A DNA stretch of 64,000 bases from Acidobacteriota bacterium (GCA_965263035.1 OZ253580.1:2368001-2432000); one strand, 5' to 3'; numbered from the stretch's first letter, positions 2,264 to 37,055 are shown. Numbers and translations are program-made. Notes: generated by a model from the letters alone, not told the origin.

Positions 2264-4138
2264 ATGAATCGACGTGAATTCGTGACATCAAGTGTCGTGG
2301 CCGCGGGAGGCTTGGCGACGCCGTCTTCCTGCGGCGGAGAGGAGAGGATGACAAGCCAACCCGAAGCATCGGAGATCATGGGGCCCGCGCGCCGGAACCT
2401 CCCTCTATACCTGGCCGATCTGAATCGCTGTCTCCCTTCCTCGGCACTGAGCCGCGAAGGCCGGCTCTTCGGCTGGCGCATGATCGACTACGAGACGGAG
2501 CACTTCGAGGGGGTCATGCTCCGGGCCGGACCCGAGACGGCGGCGGCCGCGGTCGAATACCCTCTGGAGCTGCGGGGTTGGCACGACGTCTATCTGGGAC
2601 TCTTCAATACCGCCTGGAGGCCCTACTTGGATCAGCGCCTCTGGGTGAAATTGGCGGAGGATCCGGCCTTCAGCTGTCTCTTCCTGCAGGCTCCCAGCGT
2701 CGACAAGGGTCAGGTGGTCCAGGACCTGTTCTGGAGGACCGCGGACCTGACGGGACAGAATCTGAGCTTCAAACAGGTCGCCACCGAGTTGATTCCCGCC
2801 GGGCACCCGTGCCGCAGCACCTGCGACACGGTCTGGGTCGCCTACATCAAATTGGTCCCCCTTGATGCCGACGAGGTCGAGGCACTTCAATCGGACCGGG
2901 AACAGACCGGGACCCGGCGTCTCTTTGCGACTCAGGACTGGGGTTCGGGATTCGCTTGGGATGCCGGGGAGGGGGCCATCCGCGACATGTTGGAGGCCTA
3001 CAGGCACACCGATTTCAGCCGGATCTACTGGGAGGGGGCCGCCGGCGACCTCTGCTCCTACTTCAGCCGTGTAGCGAGGACCTGGACTCCCGGGTTCGCC
3101 CAAATGGAAGACTATCCGGTTCCCGCCTACCGCCGGATCGTGGAGAACTTCACCGAGTACGAGCAGCGGGGGATCGATCCGTTCCGCGTCGCCATCGACT
3201 ATAGCCACGAACTGGGGCTCGAGTTCCACGCCAGCTACCGGTTCTGCGAGGGCATGGGACCGTTCCATTTCTCCCCGCCCTTCGACCCGATCAATCGGGG
3301 AGGATTCTACGACCGGCATCCCGAGCTCAGGGCGGTGCGCCGGGATGGGAGCCGGGCTCCCAGGATCTCGTTGAGCTATCCGGAAACCCGGGAGTTTCTG
3401 ATCTCTCTCTTTTTGGAGATGGCCGAGTATCCCGTCGACGGGATCTCCATCCTCTTCAATCGGCGGCCTCCCTACGTCGAATATGAACCGCCGCTGGTGG
3501 AAGGATTTCGGGAAGAGTACGGCCAGGATCCCCGGAAGATCGACGAGAAGGATCCCCGTTGGCTCCGCTACCGGGCGAGCGTCCTCACCGATTTCATGCG
3601 GGAGCTCCGGGAGAGACTGCAGCGGCAGGCCCGCAGCCAGGGACGCTCCCGGCCGGCGGCCCTGTCGGCCTGGGTCTTCGGCAGTGAAGAGGAAAATCTC
3701 TTCTATGCCATGGACGTGCCGGGATGGATCCGGGAGGGCCTCATCGACGGCATCGTCCCCTACACCTCGGCCCCAGGGCTCTACAGTTGGGAGTTGGCCT
3801 GGGAGAAGGCCGAGGACATCGAGTACTGGCTGTCACTGACACGCGGGACGGAATGCGAGCTGGCCCTCAACATCATGCCCAGGGCCTTGTCACCCGAGCA
3901 GTACCGGAGAAAATCCCACCAGTTGCTGAGGGCCGGAGTGCCCTATCTGGCCTTCTGGGACAGCTCCAAGACCTGGGCCGTCGACAAGATCGGTGAGGGT
4001 TCGTTTCAGCACCTGCGCCGGCTCGGCCACACCGAGGAGCTGGCCGCCTGGATCCGGGCCGGCGAGCCGAACCTGGTCCTCGCCTCGACGCCTCTGACCA
4101 AGGTGGGGGAGTGGGAGATGACCTTCATCGCGGAGTAG
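2264..4138 (+). CDS. Tat-exported glycosyl-hydrolase-like 10 (TIM-barrel) family protein
   Basis: MNRREFV twin-arginine signal; DPFRVAIDYSHELGLEFHASYR, HPELR, LSYPETRE, YPVDGISILF motifs typical of GHL10-type proteins. Confidence 0.6.
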   Translation: MNRREFVTSSVVAAGGLATPSSCGGEERMTSQPEASEIMGPARRNLPLYLADLNRCLPSSALSREGRLFGWRMIDYETEHFEGVMLRAGPETAAAAVEYPLELRGWHDVYLGLFNTAWRPYLDQRLWVKLAEDPAFSCLFLQAPSVDKGQVVQDLFWRTADLTGQNLSFKQVATELIPAGHPCRSTCDTVWVAYIKLVPLDADEVEALQSDREQTGTRRLFATQDWGSGFAWDAGEGAIRDMLEAYRHTDFSRIYWEGAAGDLCSYFSRVARTWTPGFAQMEDYPVPAYRRIVENFTEYEQRGIDPFRVAIDYSHELGLEFHASYRFCEGMGPFHFSPPFDPINRGGFYDRHPELRAVRRDGSRAPRISLSYPETREFLISLFLEMAEYPVDGISILFNRRPPYVEYEPPLVEGFREEYGQDPRKIDEKDPRWLRYRASVLTDFMRELRERLQRQARSQGRSRPAALSAWVFGSEEENLFYAMDVPGWIREGLIDGIVPYTSAPGLYSWELAWEKAEDIEYWLSLTRGTECELALNIMPRALSPEQYRRKSHQLLRAGVPYLAFWDSSKTWAVDKIGEGSFQHLRRLGHTEELAAWIRAGEPNLVLASTPLTKVGEWEMTFIAE

Positions 4139-28502: not shown

Positions 28503-28568
28503 CTCAACGGCCGCATCGGACCCTGATACGGCCAGAGTGGCTGATTGTCGGAGGGAAAGGAATAAATG

Positions 28569-28823
28569 TCACGCTACGGTGCCGCGTCCGGTCCCGACGA
28601 AGAACTCCCGCAGCACGTCGAGAGTCCCCTCGATCCGGCCCATGCGGTCCCGAAGGTCGCTGTTCTGCGACTCCAAGCCGTCGATTCTCGCGGCCAAGCG
28701 AGACTCCATCCGATCCATCCGGGACTCGACCTCCGCGCGCGGGTTTCGAATCGTGCGGGCCGTGAAAAGGAACCCCAAGATGACGATGGCAGGGGTGAAC
28801 CACTGGGTAAGTTCACTCAGCAT
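28569..28823 (-). CDS. Small TM + coiled-coil protein
   Basis: RBS GAGGA; MLSELTQWFTPAIVILGFLF...RMDRMESRL..LRDRMGRIEGTLDVL. Confidence 0.65.
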   Translation of the reverse strand: MLSELTQWFTPAIVILGFLFTARTIRNPRAEVESRMDRMESRLAARIDGLESQNSDLRDRMGRIEGTLDVLREFFVGTGRGTVA

Positions 28824-28873
28824 AGGTTCCTCGTTCTGCAAAGCATATGGGGCTTATAGACATTACTTGACGA

Positions 28874-29605
28874 CTACCGTTCCGGTGCCACGCTCGGCCT
28901 ATCGGCCCACGTTTCGGCACCCAGGGCAACAACCCCGGCCCTGAGAATGTTCAGGGCCGCGTTCTCGTCCCTGTCCATCCTGAGTCCGCAGGCTGCGCAA
29001 GCGTACCGTTCGCTTCGCCCGGGCGGGTTCCTGGCCCCACACCGGTGGCAGTCCTGCGACGTGTATTTCGGGTCCACTTCTACGAACTCCCGCCCGGCCC
29101 ACTCTGCCTTGTACTGGAGTTGATTGCGCAAAAGCCCCCAGGATTGGGTGAGGATCTCCCGATTCAGGCCCTTCTTCTTGAGGCCCTTGGTGGTCATCCC
29201 CCTGACGTTCAGTTTCTCGACGGCGATGAGTCCGTGAGAACGGACTATCCGAGACGTGGCCCGGTGGCACACATTCCGGTTCCTGACCCGCTCGCGGTAG
29301 CGTAGCCGGGCCAGTTGCCGGACCCGCTTCTTTCGGCGGTTCGATCCCCGCTTGCACCGGGCCACCCTTCACTGCTGACGCTTGATCTCCGGCCAGTCGC
29401 GGCGGTTCCGTTCGATTCGTTCCCCGGTGGACAAGACGGCCCGTTTGCGGACTCCAAGGTCGATCCCCACCGCAGAGTCACAACGGGGCAACGGTTCCTT
29501 CTCGACCTCGTAGACCAGATCCACGCAGACCCGGTTGGGCTTGCGGACGATCCGCAGGGCCTTCAACGGGCAGCCGGCCGGCAATGGACGGGACGGAAAC
29601 GCCAG
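28874..29605 (-). pseudogene. tnpB: IS200/IS605 TnpB remnant, 5'-truncated with an internal stop
   Basis: RuvC motifs GIDLG, IAVEKL, DRDENAALNI; Zn finger TSQDCHRC..CAAC; in-frame TGA at 29366-29368; N-terminal region missing. Confidence 0.9.
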
Positions 29606-29616
29606 AACAACGAATG

Positions 29617-29636
29617 GGGGACAGTCACTTTCTTCC
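29617..29636 (+). repeat. 20-bp island site 1 (GGGGACAGTCACTTTCTTCC)
   Basis: Identical to 30239-30258; 17/20 match to 32084-32103. Confidence 0.85.
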
Positions 29637-29695
29637 GTCGTCTCGCTCCAAACGAGTCCGTATTAAGGAAAAGACAAGGGAGTCGAGCTAACTGG

Positions 29696-29902
29696 TTACA
29701 CGCTCGCTTTGGGTTGGTGCACGAAGGCGAAATCCCGGATGTTGGCACGCTCCACAGCATGCTCAATTGTCATCGCGACCAAGTTTTCATTCTCGTCCAG
29801 ATCCAAGTAGATGTTCTCAGACACCTCTCGCGTCTCGACGATCCGCTCCGACGTAAACTCAATAAGAGCAGTGTCGGTATCTTCAAAGTAATTGATCTTC
29901 AT
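29696..29902 (-). CDS. DUF2283-type small protein (putative antitoxin)
   Basis: MKINYFEDTDTALIEF..VETREVSENIYLDLD..NLVAMTIEHA. Confidence 0.8.
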   Translation of the reverse strand: MKINYFEDTDTALIEFTSERIVETREVSENIYLDLDENENLVAMTIEHAVERANIRDFAFVHQPKASV

Positions 29903-30000
29903 TCCCTTGGATCGCGGATGGCAGCGAGAATCCTTTCATCCCGAATCTCTCGTCGATCCAGTCGCCTTCGACTGTGGTCGAAGTAGCGAGTGGTTCTCAT
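29899..30000 (-). pseudogene. Internally deleted toxin-like partner of DUF2283
   Basis: MRTTRYFDHSRRRLDRREIRDERILAAIRDPRE* (33 aa) with ATGA overlap onto the DUF2283 start; resembles from memory the N-terminus of longer partner toxins. Confidence 0.55.
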
Positions 30001-30238
30001 TAGGACCTACATTCCAAACCAACCAACCGCGCTGATTCCGTAATTTGCAGAGAAGCCTATAAGGCACCAAATTCGAGACACGTTTCATTTCCTCGCACGC
30101 CCGCTCCCCATACCCCCAGCTGAACTGCCCTCGCCTCCCCCGCCTCGTAAGATACCGGTCGCCGCATCCACGTACGGATTGTACCCCACCGAGAACACAC
30201 TCGTTCTCGGTGCCGCCTCCGCTCGTTGTCAATGAAAA

Positions 30239-30258
30239 GGGGACAGTCACTTTCTTCC
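30239..30258 (+). repeat. 20-bp island site 2
   Basis: Perfect direct repeat of 29617-29636. Confidence 0.85.
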
Positions 30259-30307
30259 TCTTGGTATCATCCAAAGGCGCTAACCCAACACGCAGAGGAG
30301 TAATGTC

Positions 30308-31531
30308 ATGACAAGCTACGTCATTCTGAAAGATGCCAATGCGGGACGGCGGCGAAGCTGGTTCGAAGGTCCGCAGAGCGTTGGCGGAGTGCCGTCTTAC
30401 GGTGGGATGCCGACGATGTCCGGGGACATGCCGCCCGAACCGGAAGTGAGCGTGGAAAATCTGGACCCACAAGACCTGCGGGAAGCGACGGGTGACCCAG
30501 GGATTCTGGATTTGGCGCGGACCATGCCGACACGCTTGATAGCACCGATGGCCTCGGACACAGTGGCGACGAAGGGGCCGACTTGGGGAATTCAGGCCGT
30601 CGGGGCTGACAAGAGCCCCGCCGATGGCCGAGACGTTCTGGCCTGCGTTCTGGACACCGGTATTGACGCCGATCATCCCGCCTTTGCGGGGGTGGATCTG
30701 GTACAGCAGGACTTCACCGGAACGGGCAATGGAGATGTGCAGGGCCACGGCACTCATTGTGCGGGCACGGTGTTCGGACGCGACCTAAAGGGTACGCGTA
30801 TCGGCGTGGCGCCGGGAGTGAGCCGAGCACTGATCGGGAAGGTGTTGGACGATCAGGGAGATGGCGAATCGGACAGGCTGTTCAACGCAATATTGTGGGC
30901 GTCGTCCTTGAATGCAAGGGTTCTCTCAATGTCACTCGGCTTCGATTTTCCCGGGCTGAGCATGAAGCTGGTCAAAAGAGGCTACCCGGTGGATCTGGCG
31001 ACCTCCATCGCGCTGGAGGGATACAGGGCCAATCTGCGGCTATTTGACAACCTGATGGATTTGATTGCCAGTCGGGCAGCATTCAATGGCGGCATGGTCA
31101 TCGTTGCGGCCTCGGGAAACGAGAGCAAGCGCCAGAAAAATCCGAAGTACGAGGTCAGCGCATCGGTACCGGCAGCAGCCAAGGGAATTGTATCGGTGGG
31201 AGCACTCGGGGAAGCCGGCGACGGGTTGAACGTCGCGGATTTTTCCAACACCAACCCTATGCTCAGCGCCCCCGGGGTCAATGTGGTGTCGGCGAAAGCC
31301 GGAGGCGGACTGGTAGCGCTTCAAGGGACTTCCATGGCCTGTCCCCATGCGGCCGGTGTCGCGACTCTGTGGTGGCAGAGCCTGAAGGAGGGCGCCAGCA
31401 TACCGGCAACCGCGAGCGCGGTGGTGACCCGCATGCGTGCAACCTGCCGGACCGATGTATTCCTTGCCGGCGTCGACATGCTGGACCGCGGCGACGGGCT
31501 GGTCCAGGCACCGTTCGCATCCGGTGCCTGA
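30308..31531 (+). CDS. S8 subtilisin-like serine peptidase, no signal peptide
   Basis: Catalytic triad motifs VLDTG, HGTH, GTSMA; oxyanion AASGN; RBS AGAGGAG. Confidence 0.92.
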   Translation: MTSYVILKDANAGRRRSWFEGPQSVGGVPSYGGMPTMSGDMPPEPEVSVENLDPQDLREATGDPGILDLARTMPTRLIAPMASDTVATKGPTWGIQAVGADKSPADGRDVLACVLDTGIDADHPAFAGVDLVQQDFTGTGNGDVQGHGTHCAGTVFGRDLKGTRIGVAPGVSRALIGKVLDDQGDGESDRLFNAILWASSLNARVLSMSLGFDFPGLSMKLVKRGYPVDLATSIALEGYRANLRLFDNLMDLIASRAAFNGGMVIVAASGNESKRQKNPKYEVSASVPAAAKGIVSVGALGEAGDGLNVADFSNTNPMLSAPGVNVVSAKAGGGLVALQGTSMACPHAAGVATLWWQSLKEGASIPATASAVVTRMRATCRTDVFLAGVDMLDRGDGLVQAPFASGA

Positions 31532-31691
31532 GCGTACACCCGTGTAAGCTCTGCTCCAGAGACGGGTAATCATTTAAATGATGGGTGTAAGGCCAGCCGT
31601 TACATTGAGGCTGGTGATCGTCGAGTCACGTCGTCCCGATGCGCGTCCGGCACCGCCGAATGTTAAATCGCCACCTGTTCCAGGGAATTTC

Positions 31692-31820
31692 ACGCACGAA
31701 GTAGGCGCAAATCTATTTGCGTCACGAAGCAGGGACGGTGGTTGCGAGGCGACCCGAAACCGGTCAAGTGGCGCATCATGCGCTCCAGATTGAAACCACA
31801 CAGGTGCACCAGTAATCGCT
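31692..31820 (-). pseudogene. Transposase C-terminal scrap (IS1182/IS5-like DDE)
   Basis: Minus-strand translation RLLVHLCGFNLERMMRHLTGFGSPR resembles a recalled DDE transposase C-terminal motif (KRLLVH.xGFNLGLLMR..G.GTPR); cut by MITE A copy 2. Confidence 0.5.
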
Positions 31821-31821
31821 C

Positions 31822-31988
31822 CTGGGAGCCTGCGCGGCAGAAATTGATCTACTGCGAAAGCGGTAGAATCGGTCCATATTTCCCCGATTTCTCGGCAAAT
31901 AGAACAACTATGCACCTCAATATCGAGAAAATCTGGCCTCGATTCCCCGCTTTCTCGCTACGATCATTCCTACCGCGCAGACTCCTAG
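31822..31988 (-). mobile_element. MITE family A, copy 2 (inverted)
   Basis: Reverse complement of 1981-2147 with a few substitutions. Confidence 0.85.
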
Positions 31989-32083
31989 GCGTTGGGATCG
32001 CTTCGGATCCAGACCCGGCGCGATCTTCTTCTTGCAGGCCATCAACTGGGCTAGTTCACTCGGCATGGCTTCCTCGTGAGAAG

Positions 32084-32103
32084 GGGGACTGTCACCTTTT
32101 TCC
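32084..32103 (+). repeat. 20-bp island site 3 (GGGGACTGTCACCTTTTTCC)
   Basis: 17/20 identical to sites 1 and 2, same orientation. Confidence 0.7.
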
Positions 32104-32180
32104 GCGTCCGGCAACCTCAAAAGACTGGAGAGGACGTCGATTTCCCGATCTGCGAGCTCCGGGCATTCGCATGATCGAAG

Positions 32181-32363
32181 TCAACGAGTGGGTCCTGGGC
32201 TGACTCCAATCCGATTCCCCAGACTCCCCTTGATATGGCCCATATCGATCTCTACGTTACGGAGTCTTTCATCAATTTTTTGAATTCTCTGGTCAATACT
32301 ACTGAGATACCATCCGCCCGCACCCAGCAAAAGAAGAAGTACAACCCGGAAAATCCAGTTCAC
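32181..32363 (-). CDS. Small TM + coiled-coil protein
   Basis: GTG start after GGGGGA; MNWIFRVVLLLLLGAGGWYL-SSIDQRIQKIDERLRNVEIDMGHIKGSL. Confidence 0.55.
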   Translation of the reverse strand: MNWIFRVVLLLLLGAGGWYLSSIDQRIQKIDERLRNVEIDMGHIKGSLGNRIGVSPGPTR

Positions 32364-32454
32364 ACTCAATCCCCCATTGGTTTCCCGGTGAGAAGAAAAA
32401 TGTATCTTACCTGAGTCCGGATCCTTCAGGAGTTTAGAATTCACCGCTGTCCCC

Positions 32455-32661
32455 CTACTCCCCGTTCCGCAATATTGGAGCGGCCTTGGTGATTCCTTCG
32501 AAGAGCCCCTCCAATCGCGACATCCGCTCGCGCAGGTCTGCGATGTCCTCACGAATATCCGAAATGTCACTCCGCATGGCACGTTGACCGGGAACGAGGG
32601 CGCCGGCGAGCGCAATCGTCGCCACGATGATCCCGATGATCCCGATGAGTTACGAACTCAT
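32455..32661 (-). pseudogene. Small TM + coiled-coil protein with a premature TAA at codon 4
   Basis: RBS AGGAGG; MSS*LIGIIGIIVATIALAGALVPGQRAMRSDISDIREDIADLRERMSRLEGLFEGI...; C-terminal motif shared with 28569-28823. Confidence 0.6.
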
Positions 32662-32878
32662 GAATCCTTCCTCCTACGGTTCGCCCTCATCGGGTGAAGG
32701 TATCGGCAGACTATCACGCCCATGTCTACTGGGAATACTTGGGCGGTGCCGGTCTCCCGGCCACAGTCCCGGCAGGTTTCCTTGCGGCCTGCTCCGAGTA
32801 TGGAGATCGTCCCCTCAATTGATTCGGTCCCTCTATGACTGTAACGCGTCAGCCACGGAATCTGCGTTGACTCCGGCC

Positions 32879-32912
32879 AAAAAAAAGGGCCAGCCCGAAG
32901 GCTGGCCCTTTT
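32879..32912 (-). terminator. Rho-independent terminator of the TonB-dependent receptor gene (probably bidirectional)
   Basis: AAAAAAAAGGGCCAGCC-CGAA-GGCTGGCCCTTTT: perfect GC stem with a T8 tail on the minus strand. Confidence 0.9.
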
Positions 32913-32937
32913 GAAACGCTCGATTGCGCTTGGATCG

Positions 32938-35900
32938 CTAGAACGAGAAGCGGAATCCAATCTGAATCTGCCGCGCTGTCGCTGCCGAGGTCACCCGGCC
33001 AACACCACCACTGGCATGGTTGCCGTTGGGCGCGTTGAAGACCGCGTGGTTGAAGGCGTTGAAGAAGTCCGCCCGGACGTCGAAGACCTTGTCTTCTCCG
33101 AAGGCGAAATTCTTGTGCAGCGAGAGGTCCACGATGGGAACTCCGTCGTAGCGCAGCGGATAGGGAGCACCGTTACCCAGGGACCGCCTTGCCGCTTCGT
33201 GACAGAAGTTGGCCCCGCCGCAGAGCGACGTGTCCATGATCCGCTGCCCCGGCACGTTCGGGTTCTCGATGCCAGGTGCCGTGAAGGCACTGGTGTCATA
33301 CCACCGCTCCACCGTGGCTCCGCCGCCCAAGGCCCCGTCCTTTATCCGGTCGGTGTACCGGCGTGAACGGCCGCCCTGGTTCCACAGATCGGTGCTGTAG
33401 TAGACCCGGAAGGGGGCTCCCGTAGTGAGAGTGGTGATGCTGGTGAGCTCCCAACCGCCCAGCAGGGACTTGGTGACCCCGCCGGCGTTCCGGAAGAAAG
33501 GCAGCTCCCAGATGCCGGACATGTAGTAGGTGCTGGAGCGGTCGTGCTGCATGGGCGCCCGCAGGGCGTGGCGCTCGTAGTCACGCGACCCGGACCAGTC
33601 TCCCCAGTTGCCGTTGTAGTTCATGGCCATGGCCTTGGACCAGGTGTAACCCATGGAAAGGGCGATACCGTCGCGGAAGCGCCGCTCCAACTTGGTCTGC
33701 AGGGAGTTGTAGTTCATGCTCCCGTGCGGCCGCAGCATGGTGTTGGGAATGACCTGGGGATAAGGCCGCCGGGCCAACTGCCCATTCCATTCACGACCGA
33801 CCTCGCCACGAGTCTCGGCCGGAATCCACTCGCGAGGCCCGGCAGTGATGGGGTCGCTGGTCAAGGTCGTGGTGCCGCCTCCGATCAGAGGCACGACGTA
33901 CCCTTCGGGCATGGCCACGTTGAAGGGGCTGATCTCACGAATGTGGCGCCCCTGGTTGCCCACGTAACCGATTTCCCACTTGGTCCCCTGGAACAACTCG
34001 TGCTGAATCATGAGGTTGTAGGAATAGACTTGGCCTTCCTGCCAATCCAATTCGGAGAAGTAGCAGGTGCGGTAGTTGCTGTTGACCCGAATGCCATCCG
34101 CGTTGACCGCACCCGTATCCCGGGGCAGGTCGAGCCGTATGCCGCTGATGAGGGAGGGGACTGCCTCTCCTCGTACGGCCGGCAGGTTGATGACGCCGAC
34201 GTTGGGCCGCATGACCCGGGCGCGGAGAATTCCGAACTCCTGGTCATAGGTCAGGCCCGCACCGGCGCGGAGTACCGTCCGGTTGGTCCCGAACATGCGC
34301 CAGGCCAGACCCAACCGAGGAGCAAAGTAGCGCCACTTGGCCTTGTAACAACCGTGGTGAGGCAGGTTGGCGAAGGGAACGGCGATTCCGACGGCACCCT
34401 GCCACTGGGCGATGTCGAAATCCTTGGGCATCATCTCTACCGGATCGATCCGGTTGGTGGCCTGGGTGTAGTCGTAGCTACAGTAGTAGTAGTCCTTGGT
34501 GTACGACCCGTTGGGGTGTCCCTCGTAAAAGGGCGGCCGCGGCTGCTCCCAGCGAAGGCCGATGTTCAGGGTCAGGTTCGGACCCACCTTCCAGTCGTCG
34601 TTGATGAACCAATTGTAATGGCTCTGGTTGAAGTGGCCCGTGTTCTCGCCGATGCCCAGCACGTTGCCGAAGACCGAGGAGGGCGTTCCCAGCATGAAAT
34701 CGGCCCAGCCCTCGCCCTCGGAAACGCCCGCGAAGGTTCCGTCGGGGTTGTACTGGAGTTGGCCCGTGCCGAACCCGTTGAAGCTGTCCCCACCGGCCGC
34801 ATAGGGCGGAATCCAATAGTAGTGGACATCCAGGTTCCGGACATGCTCGACGCCGAACTTCAGGTAGTGGTCTCCCTTCCTCCAGGAGGCCGTGTACTTG
34901 AAGCCCAGGCCCCAGTCCGCAAGCGGCGATTCGGTGGCGCCGCCCCAACCGGTGTAGCCGGAAGGGCTCAGGCGGGGCATGTTGGCGCCGCCGCGGTTGC
35001 CGTTGGGCAGATACACTTCCCAGTTGTGGCCGTCGTCGAAGCCCAGCTCCCGCGGCCAGTTGGTGTCCTCGATGGGCCGTGAGATGAGCCAGGTGAACTT
35101 CCAGATGGACTGGGTGTACTCGGTCACCAGGTTGGAACCGATGGGGTTCACCCAACTGATGCCGATCTGGTAGCCGCGGGACCGGTCCTGGAACTGGCGG
35201 TAGATGCCGTCCTGGTTGGCGCCGGGGACCCCCCAACGCCCGGTATGGGTAAAGGCGGGGGACCGCTGCCAACTGTAACGGCCGAAGATGGTGTCGTCGT
35301 TGCCGAACTGGTGGTCGACGCGGAACGAGTACTTGTCGATCTTGGTGTTGGTCGCCCGGGGATAGGCGTAGTTGCTGGTGAGCTCACCCGCCTGGTTGGG
35401 TGCCGGAGGGGGCATCAACTCCATCACCTTCTTGTAGACGGCCCCCTGCATGTTGGCCGGGATCTGGTTGTTGGGGAACGGAGCCCGCACGCCGGTTGCG
35501 TCTGCCTGGCTTCCGGTGAAGTCAAACGGATTGTAGAGCTGAGGGATGACCCCCTTGGCGCCCGAACCCGAGAAGTTGCCCTGGGTGATGGCCGTGGAAG
35601 GCGCGGTAGCGAAGCCGGCCGTTTGCAGGTTGTCAATGAACTTCTCGTAATGGGCGTGGAAGAAGGTCTTGTCCTTGAGGACGGGACCACCGATGGAGCC
35701 GCCGCCGATGTGGTAGTCCACTGGCAGCTTCTTCAGCCCCGACCGGTTCTGGAAGAAGTTGGCCGCATCCAGAGTCTCATCCCGGAAGTAGTACCAGGCA
35801 TGGCCGTGGAACTCGTTGCTCCCGCTCTTGGAGAGCATGGTGATGACCGCCCCGCCCACGCGGCCGTACTCGGCCGAGTAGTTGTTGGTGATGACCTTGA

Positions 35901-36585
35901 ACTCCTGCACCGTCTCCGGAGTCGGCTGCACCGTGGGCCGCTGCGTGATGTAGCCCATGTTGTTGGAGCCGTCCAACTGGATCTGGTTGGAGTGCGAATA
36001 CAGGCCGTTGAAGGTGGGATAGCCGCCGCCGTAGGCGTAGAGGGCCGTGTAGCCGACCTCCTGCCGCTCCTGGGTCCCACCCGTGGTCAGGTAGGCCAGC
36101 TTCACCATGTCGCGGCCCGCAAGAGGAAGATCCAGGATCTTCTTCTCTTCGATGACCGCCGCCACCTCGGCATTGTCGGTGTCGATGATGGTGGACTGTC
36201 CGGTGACCGTCACCTGCTCGGAGATTTCGCCGGGGGACATGGTGAGATCGATGCGGGATACCGTCTGAACCTCCAGACGGACCCCCAGGGAGCGGGCCGT
36301 CTTGAAGCCGGGCAACTCCGCCGAGATGTCATAGAAACCGGGGATCAACTTGTCGATGACGTAGTCACCGCGGTCGTTGGTCACCGCCATGTGCGGCACG
36401 TTGGTCGCCGTGGCCGTGGCCGTGACTTCCACCCCGGGCACCACCGCTCCGGTCTGGTCCTTGACGGTACCCAGCAACCGGGAAAAGGTGGCAGCCTGTC
36501 CGTAGGCCAGCGGCGCCGCAAGCGCATGAACGACGAACACCAAGGCTGCCGTCGCCAGCCATAGAGACTTGTTCTTGTAGCTCAT
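32938..36585 (-). CDS. TonB-dependent receptor, Oar-like with carboxypeptidase-regulatory-like N-terminal domain
   Basis: GTVKDQTGAVVPG, EFKVITNNYSAEYG, KSGSNEFHG, NDDWKV..LTLNIGLRWE, APRLGLAW, C-terminal RQIQIGFRFSF; RBS AGGAGG. Confidence 0.92.
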   Translation of the reverse strand: MSYKNKSLWLATAALVFVVHALAAPLAYGQAATFSRLLGTVKDQTGAVVPGVEVTATATATNVPHMAVTNDRGDYVIDKLIPGFYDISAELPGFKTARSLGVRLEVQTVSRIDLTMSPGEISEQVTVTGQSTIIDTDNAEVAAVIEEKKILDLPLAGRDMVKLAYLTTGGTQERQEVGYTALYAYGGGYPTFNGLYSHSNQIQLDGSNNMGYITQRPTVQPTPETVQEFKVITNNYSAEYGRVGGAVITMLSKSGSNEFHGHAWYYFRDETLDAANFFQNRSGLKKLPVDYHIGGGSIGGPVLKDKTFFHAHYEKFIDNLQTAGFATAPSTAITQGNFSGSGAKGVIPQLYNPFDFTGSQADATGVRAPFPNNQIPANMQGAVYKKVMELMPPPAPNQAGELTSNYAYPRATNTKIDKYSFRVDHQFGNDDTIFGRYSWQRSPAFTHTGRWGVPGANQDGIYRQFQDRSRGYQIGISWVNPIGSNLVTEYTQSIWKFTWLISRPIEDTNWPRELGFDDGHNWEVYLPNGNRGGANMPRLSPSGYTGWGGATESPLADWGLGFKYTASWRKGDHYLKFGVEHVRNLDVHYYWIPPYAAGGDSFNGFGTGQLQYNPDGTFAGVSEGEGWADFMLGTPSSVFGNVLGIGENTGHFNQSHYNWFINDDWKVGPNLTLNIGLRWEQPRPPFYEGHPNGSYTKDYYYCSYDYTQATNRIDPVEMMPKDFDIAQWQGAVGIAVPFANLPHHGCYKAKWRYFAPRLGLAWRMFGTNRTVLRAGAGLTYDQEFGILRARVMRPNVGVINLPAVRGEAVPSLISGIRLDLPRDTGAVNADGIRVNSNYRTCYFSELDWQEGQVYSYNLMIQHELFQGTKWEIGYVGNQGRHIREISPFNVAMPEGYVVPLIGGGTTTLTSDPITAGPREWIPAETRGEVGREWNGQLARRPYPQVIPNTMLRPHGSMNYNSLQTKLERRFRDGIALSMGYTWSKAMAMNYNGNWGDWSGSRDYERHALRAPMQHDRSSTYYMSGIWELPFFRNAGGVTKSLLGGWELTSITTLTTGAPFRVYYSTDLWNQGGRSRRYTDRIKDGALGGGATVERWYDTSAFTAPGIENPNVPGQRIMDTSLCGGANFCHEAARRSLGNGAPYPLRYDGVPIVDLSLHKNFAFGEDKVFDVRADFFNAFNHAVFNAPNGNHASGGVGRVTSAATARQIQIGFRFSF

Positions 36586-37055
36586 TCCGTCTTTCCTCCT
36601 GAAAGCTAGCAAGCCTAAAACTTTCCGGCCAATTTGGCCGTCCTTACAATTAAGGAACAAATATTCCGCGTCAATACGTCCGGGCACTTGTAGCCGATCC
36701 GTTTCGGCGCGTCAACAAAAAATTTTTGCCCTGGCCCGGGAACTAGGCCCCTGGCGATGGGCTGAATCCGCTCCACGGACTCGCCGTCAGGCTAAGCATG
36801 TTAGGTGCCAATACCCGGAAATCACTGGTTAACATATTGAAGTAATGATACTTAGACCCTATTCATGGCATCCAGATCAACTCCAAAACTCCAATGATTT
36901 GGACTGATGCAAGGGCCGCCAGCCAAAAAACTGAACCCTAGCCGGCCGAGGCGGACGAGGCCTGAACACTCGGGGCAACGATTCAGCACCCCCTCGAGAC
37001 ATCCCTACCCAAAGTCGTGCCGACGGCTCCCCTCTCACTCCTCGCTCCTCACTCG

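Follow-up and report, generated by a model that had tools for sequence, protein, structure and literature searches.

The described systems closest to the one considered here include the TIRtrons, Y1 genes flanked by inverted repeats that share the sequence GGGGWSAS, for which the accessible sections of Di Nocera et al. (2013; PMC3733652) describe an Acidobacteria-specific group among the enzymes (TIRYT) and repeat families that can be moderately abundant and occur as single, dimeric or clustered copies. In the sections of Quentin et al. (2018; PMC6006769) dealing with these proteins, TIRYT is largely equated with TnpA-Y1 subclass 2.1, and a subclass 2.3, mainly from Chromatiales and Alteromonadales, is described as comprising proteins of about 325 amino acids (aa), present in several diverged copies per genome and with a long HuH-Tyr spacing (median 110); the same sections report that no REP (repetitive extragenic palindromic)-like repeats were found for subclasses 2.1 and 2.3. 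Here we consider a window of 64,000 nucleotides (nt) from the genome of an Acidobacteriota bacterium (G000; a single contig of 6,198,070 bp with 62% GC, the window being G000:C1:2,368,001-2,432,000), in which three short sites lie between the glcF gene and a TonB-dependent receptor (TBDR) gene. These sites very probably belong to the repeat family of a 311-aa Y1 enzyme of the HUH type, and we hold the chances to be even that they are solo terminal repeats of a RAYT/TIRYT-type Y1 HUH family which act as preferred junctions between gene modules.

The 20-mer GGGGACAGTCACTTTCTTCC occurs exactly at 29617-29636 and 30239-30258 on the + strand and, as GGGGACTGTCACCTTTTTCC and with 17/20 matching positions, at 32084-32103 on the same strand; the whole window holds no fourth copy, and 100 shuffles gave an expectation of 0 matches. 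An earlier note, made from the window alone, had claimed three 20-bp sites in the same orientation and had noticed none elsewhere in the window, which the search bears out. The shorter pattern GGGGACWGTCACY, a degenerate core of 13 nt, is weaker evidence, being found three times against a mean of 0.69, with 3/100 shuffles also reaching three. Read on the - strand, site 1 consists of GGAAGAAAGTGACTGTCCCC followed by the arm CATTCGTT, with its GGGG tip at 29617, and its left flank, gccagaacaacgaat, is common to three relatives of the same genus (G002, G003 and G007). The left arm and flank of site 3 are similar to the start of a peptide gene of the P1 type (Table 1); on the right side of this site, both arm and flank are conserved in G006 and G007.

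All three sites belong to a repeat family of about 25 bp, (G)AGAAGGTGACTGTCCCCTTCTC. A profile search of the 6.2-Mb genome returned 105 matches that do not overlap, of which 86 have E<=1, and the exact core GGGGACWGTCAC of the family occurs 46 times. The repeat core GGGGACAGTC(AC), which reads GAGAAGGTGACTGTCCCCTTCTC on the opposite strand, includes 12 invariant nt, the consensus of the other strand, (G)AGAGAAG-GTGACTGTCCCC-TTCTC, being a near-palindrome with an invariant asymmetric centre; in variants of the family GTAAC or ATAGAC replaces GTGAC. Sixty-six of the 86 copies lie outside called genes, although 86% of the genome is marked as coding by the crude caller employed, and the family is gathered in about a dozen variable regions, the copies there lying head-to-tail: 74/86 copies have another copy no more than 8 kb away (random mean 17; at most 36 in 1000 trials), and neighbouring pairs are co-oriented in 52 of 58 cases (p=3e-10). 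The expectation, raised in the earlier note, that the motif might cluster in variable loci is met by these counts. The clusters carry toxin-antitoxin (TA), defence-like, insertion sequence (IS) and assorted enzyme genes, including Phd/PIN, MazE, ParE, HigBA, TumE, Fic, GmrSD, an AAA_21 ATPase, Schlafen/AlbA, Mrr_N, GNATs, P450s, radical SAM proteins and TnpB, IS110, rve and DDE fragments. A perfectly symmetric palindromic version of the site of about 27 bp (GAGAGAGAAGGTGAC-W-GTCACCTTCTCTCTC), matched on both strands and without the usual asymmetric centre, was also observed at G000 4,601,026-4,601,054.

The GGGGACAG core of the family also forms the inverted termini of a Y1 gene, present in G000 as four paralogues (at 800.9, 1561.6, 1832.1 and 5961.2 kb) that were found via weak Pfam Y1_Tnp matches and encode proteins of 311 aa with about 89% identity. 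Upstream of all four copies, at a distance of 100-175 bp, lies GGGGACAGTCT, continuing as (A/G)TTTTTCC, and 170-300 bp downstream of three of the four lies the inverted AGACTGTCCC (longer form AGACTGTCCCTTTC); homology between the paralogues stops at these repeats. A Y1 or RAYT gene flanked by the motif, which the earlier note had advised looking for, is therefore found elsewhere in the genome, bracketed by inverted repeats and co-occurring with the motif. The protein scores 36.2 bits with Pfam Y1_Tnp (cut-off 23) and aligns with profile positions 3-145 of 146 of the NCBIfam RAYT model NF047646 (E 3.6e-14), and the motifs N63-H64-x-H66 (N63-H64-F-H66) and Y163-x-E-L-N167 (Y163-V-E-L-N167) are invariant in 17 homologues. 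Its AlphaFold2 model, with a core pLDDT of 83-96, shows a Y1 fold; Foldseek ranked highest the structure 4er8_A (E 4.9e-5, TMt 0.64), a complex of E. coli TnpA-REP with a REP hairpin, and placed IS200/IS608/ISDra2 transposases at ranks 2 to about 25. Several homologues are named 'REP element-mobilizing transposase RayT' by JGI.

The association between enzyme and repeat extends across genomes. When the 15-mer GACTGTCCCCTTYTC was searched in 41 genomes, with the reversed pattern as a control (0-1 matches), 41 copies were found in G000 and 56 in G023, a member of another family; each of the 8 other members of the G000 genus had 11-67, six sister-genus genomes held 0-1 copies and the rest 0-2. 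Homologues of the enzyme with at least 72% identity were present only in motif-bearing genomes, i.e., in the genus (8/8 relatives) and in G023, the gene being found in four copies in G000 and in 2-12 copies, at 72-90% identity, in the relatives. G023 holds two identical copies at 80% identity, whereas the sister genus reaches only 46-54%, a difference that, judged from these sequences, points to a joint horizontal transfer of enzyme and sites to G023. There, 49/56 motif copies are found among housekeeping genes, in 69 kb of DNA surrounding the enzyme gene, with the repeat three times upstream and six times downstream of the enzyme copy. They stand mostly in gene-less stacks of 133-bp and 202-bp modules, each starting with the motif and in variable order, and one ParE/Phd pair lies between co-oriented copies. 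The end of the 133-bp module is TATA-rich and promoter-like, and immediately precedes a gene (L021 3200-4850, L022 2640-4820). More distant homologues (39-57% identity), in 4/5 other genera examined, have a GGGGACAG-type repeat upstream.

At the glcF-TBDR locus, which was compared with 7 relatives of the genus, a site stands directly before the S8 subtilase gene in every S8-bearing genome, with a conserved right flank and a left flank that varies by genome, and S8 homology begins at window 30231-30251 in 7/7 relatives holding the gene. G006 has only one site, immediately in front of S8, at the place occupied in G000 by site 1, the 622-bp DUF2283 module and site 2; G002 and G003 have one full site and then, about 55 bp on, an apparent degenerate second right arm before S8, and in all three genomes the outer flanks match those of G000. 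The DUF2283 module is absent from G002, G003, G006, G004 and G005 and present in G007, and G001 carries the S8 and DUF2283 modules in reverse order. The right flank of site 3 is common to G000, G006 and G007, and its left flanks are three unrelated sequences. The TnpB remnant to the left of site 1 is unique to G000 at this locus and replaces a segment of the relatives ('m0-x') which begins with an extra site just after P1; this site, 'm0', is 16 nt away from the P1 start codon in relatives and has been lost from G000. Homology of the remnant ends at about 29599, so that its truncation near the site, already noticed in the earlier note, stands, with the distance corrected from about 10 bp to 17 nt. 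Breakpoints of gain, loss and reordering among the 7 relatives often coincide with sites, as had been proposed for checking, and 11/53 ends of homology blocks, counted in G000 coordinates, are no more than 30 nt away from a site tip, against 4.5% expected.

Similar junctions were seen at array N (5.548-5.559 Mb), of which an orthologous array exists in all 8 relatives, five of them examined closely. Its oxidoreductase cassette, duplicated in G007, has a site on the left in 6/7 occurrences, on the right in 6/7 and on both sides in 5/7, with unrelated DNA beyond, and hybrid sites are found in which each arm, left or right, goes with the neighbour on its own side. In G000 an insertion of 1.97 kb separates the oxidoreductase cassette from a TumE-type TA cassette, the two abutting in G006, G002, G003, G007 and G004, and a block 96% identical in G006 and G007 starts exactly at a site. 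Block ends within 30 nt of a site tip number 12/48 in G000 coordinates (7.3% expected) and 20/48 in the relatives' own coordinates, and at array J a hand count gave about 5/34 (about 4% expected), several clear boundaries lying elsewhere. Overall, at the three loci compared, block ends fall within 30 nt of a site four to five times as often as expected by chance but stay a minority, about 21% in G000 coordinates. Remnants of mobile genes, TnpB and Xer-like, are cut 14-17 nt from a site tip. Within G000, the search for duplicated inter-site segments, mostly swamped by miniature inverted-repeat transposable element (MITE) and IS copies, returned a few segments starting right after a site and one 6-kb segmental duplication in the 1.95-1.96 Mb array; in no case was a cassette found cleanly copied into another array. 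Two stretches of the array at 1.94-1.96 Mb (1,952.9-1,954.2 kb and 1,959.0-1,961.1 kb) represent a duplication of about 1-2 kb with 98.9% identity, which holds two sites and a GNAT gene, and adjoins an rve fragment and a recombinase fragment.

Solo sites between unrelated genes may thus be understood as preferred junctions at which adjacent DNA would be inserted, deleted, duplicated or reordered, and we lean slightly towards regarding them as true recombination junctions rather than bystanders, preferred and not exclusive. The mechanism proposed as most likely is one in which the Y1 enzyme works in trans, nicking DNA at the conserved core and joining it again; a segment between two co-oriented sites could then leave with one site and re-enter at another. 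The analogy is with the 'peel and paste' of IS608 and, in form, with the cassettes of attC systems. Among the candidates, only the Y1 enzyme has the site at the ends of its own gene and follows it from genome to genome; that it is the catalyst at solo sites has slightly less than an even chance. The fullest version, in which the Y1 HUH enzyme would run an integron-like system without an integrase, with the end-repeat of about 25 bp as the attC analogue, one-repeat circles being re-inserted and arrays standing at a dozen loci, is put forward tentatively. The earlier note had imagined an integron-like array without attC, served in trans by a HUH or a tyrosine recombinase; this is partly supported, clustering of the repeat, breakpoints and the Y1 gene agreeing with it in kind, and the alternative of a recombinase adjacent to the array fails.

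Several results weigh against this interpretation. Most block ends do not lie at a site (42/53 at the window locus, 36/48 at array N and about 29/34 in cluster J), and the counts are not independent, since the relatives are kin. The S8 and DUF2283 modules are found only at the glcF locus in the genus, with no sign of movement between arrays. The copies show no orientation bias by replichore (19/23 and 28/16), which counts against the proposal because a replication-coupled single-strand mechanism might predict one. A selected hairpin with covarying arms found no support: in 68 distinct copies the stems paired at 72.4% versus 71.9% in shuffles, with 155/500 shuffles as high, and consensus copies reach only -5.3 kcal/mol. 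The dyad GGGGAC-W-GTCAC described in the earlier note is indeed present, within the longer near-palindrome, but the three window copies fold no better than shuffles. As for the enzyme, its NF047646 score of 52.9 bits is below the equivalog cut-off of 80, searches of PDB sequences with the single protein and with a 17-sequence profile were blank, and the gene is multi-copy, unlike typical single-copy RAYTs. Neutral in this respect are public contigs of four runs (X1, X2, X4, X8), in which no joint between sites 1 and 2, expected of a circular or deleted form, was seen and which cannot show rare circles; nine entries for public runs hold the stretch or part of it, and X4 and X8 carry the same arrangement as G000.

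The strongest competing explanation, which we consider rather unlikely, is that the copies are passive, REP-like repeats spread by the Y1 enzyme or its ancestor, and that the rearrangements are by-products of about 25 bp of homology and of intergenic position, arising by RecA-dependent or illegitimate recombination and inter-strain exchange without site-specific cassette chemistry. The small fraction of block ends at sites and the confinement of the S8 and DUF2283 modules to their home locus are what it would predict; the duplicated glcF 3' ends of G001, G004 and G007 indicate other routes of rearrangement at the same locus, and the G023 copies, mostly gene-less stacks between housekeeping genes, resemble BIME (bacterial interspersed mosaic element) clusters. 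Passive repeats account less readily for the near-uniform co-orientation within arrays, for junctions that fall inside a site of about 25 bp and not anywhere in spacers of several hundred bp, for hybrid sites whose arms travel with different neighbours, and for the TnpB and Xer-like remnants cut so close to a site tip.

The sites could also be read as core sites of a tyrosine recombinase, Xer-like or another integrase as in dif-type modules, with 7-bp inverted arms (GAGAAGG/CCTTCTC) around an asymmetric 9-bp spacer, the Y1 gene merely carrying them. The layout of the consensus and its most conserved part, the centre, as expected of a crossover region, agree with this reading, and a 334-aa Xer-like gene, the only recombinase touching an array, abuts array N. 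This gene is, however, truncated by the site junction at aa ~323, is multi-copy and was not found in the motif-bearing genomes G023 and G008, for which reasons it was rejected as the cognate enzyme and is regarded as cargo, not catalyst; the motif follows the Y1 clade and none of the recombinases examined, and a tyrosine recombinase site is improbable overall. Members of the Xer-like family, 84-92% identical and accompanied by fragments, were located in G000 at 5,547,290-5,548,477 (L016:7290-8477), 2,087,369, 5,656,001 and 3,683,196, and are probably part of another mobile element.

There is only a slim chance that the sites are a regulatory DNA or RNA element, i.e., an operator, part of a promoter, a terminator or a processing hairpin common to accessory genes. 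Several copies do lie 15-40 nt before a ribosome-binding site (RBS) and start codon, e.g., at P1-type peptide genes, and motif modules of G023 hold promoter-like, TATA-rich ends before a gene; yet the copies are randomly oriented with respect to the genes beside them (18/18/18/12 of 66), the fold is weak and without covariation, and the same core forms the inverted termini of a transposase-like gene. An Rfam search gave five weak matches below gathering scores, none overlapping a site. Classical attC sites contain GTTRRRY/RYYYAAC boxes in an R''/L''-L'/R' arrangement. A classical integron, or a CALIN (cluster of attC sites lacking integron-integrases) with divergent attC sites served by an integron integrase, would explain co-oriented sites between small, often TA-type, promoterless-looking genes and is nevertheless highly improbable, because no integron integrase was found (best TIGR02249 match 78.7 bits against a cut-off of 265; array-adjacent recombinase 53.1 bits) and the consensus of the site of about 25 bp, read directly, has no such boxes.

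The features of the locus are collected in Table 1.

Table 1. Features between glcF and the TBDR gene, in window coordinates; the last row refers to the loci of relatives.
Feature	Position	Strand	Remarks
P1, gene of an 84-aa coiled-coil/membrane peptide	28569-28823	-	
TnpB (IS605-family) remnant, 3' 750 bp only, internal stop	28850-29600	-	domain matches 28874-29584
Site 1, putative solo end-repeat	29606-29636	-	nhmmer 21.0 bits
Site 1-site 2 module: DUF2283 and DUF4258-like fragment	29637-30231	-	
DUF2283 gene	29696-29902	-	57.9 bits
35-aa frame, weak DUF4258 match	29902-30006	-	E 0.021
Site 2, putative solo end-repeat	30232-30258	-	nhmmer 26.7 bits; 20-mer identical to site 1
S8 subtilase module	30259-31570	+	gene 30308-31531; Peptidase_S8 122.6 bits
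MITE, 165-168 bp	~31822-31988		~180 genomic copies
Site 3, putative solo end-repeat	32076-32103	-	nhmmer 17.0 bits; 17/20 to sites 1 and 2
Module right of site 3, small peptide open reading frames (ORFs) 32184-32381 and 32455-32625	32104-32680	-	partly conserved in relatives
Partial glcF 3' end copies	L042 (G001) 3278-3435; L043 (G004) 3252-3783; L038 (G007) 2400-2459		

The analysis essentially confirmed the cargo listed in the earlier note, that is the TnpB remnant, DUF2283, the S8 protease, the MITE and small peptides. The TnpB remnant has Cas12f1-like_TNB (90 bits) and OrfB_IS605 matches and corresponds only to the 3' 750 bp of multi-copy IS copies. The 'decayed toxin' also named there is plausible but thin, since its sole basis is the 35-aa frame with its weak match to DUF4258. 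The MITE insertion is present at this locus in G000 only, and adjoins a 45-bp fragment of a P1-like gene start (32041-32085). GC content is 0.51-0.56 at 29600-30400 and 31600-32600 and 0.57-0.64 across S8, compared with 0.62-0.70 in glcDEF and 0.61-0.67 in the TBDR gene; the cargo is hence lower in GC than its flanks, as had been noted, most clearly in the two gene-poor stretches.

The small coiled-coil/membrane peptide ORFs of the window gave no significant family match. The four genes concerned (28569-28823, 31917-32066, 32184-32381 and 32455-32625) form one family, with about ten weaker relatives elsewhere in G000; in several genes of the family the RBS is preceded, at 15-20 nt, by a motif site. 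The idea that the motif requires a P1-type peptide gene as its partner was considered and rejected, matches to the peptide queries outside the locus never falling at motif positions listed by nhmmer. A second partial glcF 3' end (60-186 bp) lies 1-2 kb downstream of the intact gene in G001, G004 and G007, the second copy in G004 extending over about 530 bp including the adjoining P1 gene, which suggests tandem insertion or duplication at the locus independent of the motif. Two tandem TBDR genes, about 87% identical to each other's counterpart, occur in G006, G007, G005, G001 and G004, and one in G000, G002 and G003 (window 32938-36687; L037, L038, L041-L043). Just downstream of the TBDR gene, at window 32872-32986 (- strand), four weak Rfam matches of small RNA or terminator type, all below gathering scores, fall on a hairpin and T-run that is probably an intrinsic terminator only.

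Long Y1 HUH proteins such as TIRYT and those like subclasses 2.1/2.3 are common and without known activity. The genus considered here offers a clear pair of enzyme and site, with a 12-nt invariant core, some 90 natural substrates in each genome and, at several loci, natural alleles of the 'before and after' kind, together with a probable recent transfer to another family (G023) in which the copies are still concentrated around the enzyme gene. Two questions thereby become testable, i.e., what these enzymes cut and join, and whether REP-like repeats organise gene gain and loss. If the HUH cassette reading were true, it would provide a role for a large branch of Y1 proteins, TIRYT and 2.1/2.3-like, that so far lacks a function, and would imply long-lived arrays of TA, defence and enzyme cassettes, whose enzyme and sites are able to move to another bacterial family; if the role of the sites at junctions were passive, the finding would be an ordinary new repeat family.

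Compared with integrons and CALINs, the arrays are alike in having one short site per module, co-orientation, cargo rich in TA and GNAT genes, hybrid junction sites and long-lived orthologous arrays with gain and loss, and differ in that no IntI was found, in the lack of attC boxes or of structure of attC length, and in the mixed gene orientation within modules; nor was an attI or promoter (Pc) platform identified, no search aimed at either having been made. With IS200/IS605 elements such as IS608 they share a Y1 HUH enzyme and, in the proposed route, cleavage beside a recognised end and a circle re-inserting at a short target, as outlined in the part of PMC5027513 concerned with these elements. 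Here, in contrast, one and the same site, directly repeated, would serve as both 'ends', with the enzyme gene outside the mobile segment, and no replichore bias is seen. The short internal TnpA, distinct left-end and right-end (LE/RE) hairpins and near-identical copies of that group have as their counterparts a 311-aa protein, copies about 89% identical and the same inverted repeat at both termini.

The likeness to REP/RAYT systems (REPtrons and REPINs, as far as treated in the available parts of PMC3116915, PMC3337134 and PMC3479197) lies in the predicted fold, closest to TnpA-REP 4ER8, in the HUH and Tyr motifs, in a gene bracketed by its own inverted short repeat and in the extragenic position of the repeats. 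Unlike RAYTs, the Y1 gene is below the NCBIfam equivalog cut-off and multi-copy, and since it is multi-copy and likely to have been transferred horizontally to G023, it departs from the vertical, single-copy inheritance of RAYTs. The repeats, for their part, differ from REPs in not forming inverted doublets (52/58 neighbouring pairs are direct), in a hairpin that is weak and without covariation, unlike classical REP hairpins, in having GTAG before the stem only in a subset, e.g., in the 1.94-1.96 Mb array, and in about 90 copies at a dozen loci as opposed to hundreds that are dispersed.

By description, as given in the relevant sections of PMC6006769, the enzyme resembles subclasses 2.1 and 2.3 in its length (311 aa versus medians of 238 and 325), its NH[YF]H HuH motif, its Y-V-E/D-L-N motif and a HuH-Tyr spacing of about 100 aa, and, as in subclass 2.3, several diverged copies occur per genome. 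It differs from what those sections report in its evident cognate repeat family and in a tyrosine motif ending in N-A, not N-P. The system agrees with the TIRYT/TIRtron type in that the GGGGACAG termini fit the GGGGWSAS consensus (from the parts of PMC3733652 and PMC6006769 presenting it) and the terminal inverted repeat is here, too, a genomic repeat family of 86 copies (E<=1). The same consensus is matched by sites 1 and 2, and site 3 (GGGGACTG) departs from it at one position. In the accessible sections of PMC3733652 there are no gene-separating co-oriented arrays, hybrid-arm junctions, co-transfer of enzyme and repeat, or 4-12 diverged enzyme copies per genome, and a search for HUH-based cassette arrays in the papers covered returned nothing relevant. 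The type of element is therefore already known in outline, from those sections, as TIRYT/TIRtron repeats, and what appears to be new here are the co-oriented arrays of solo repeats separating genes, the hybrid-arm junctions, the co-transfer of enzyme and sites, and a repeat family for a 2.1/2.3-like enzyme.

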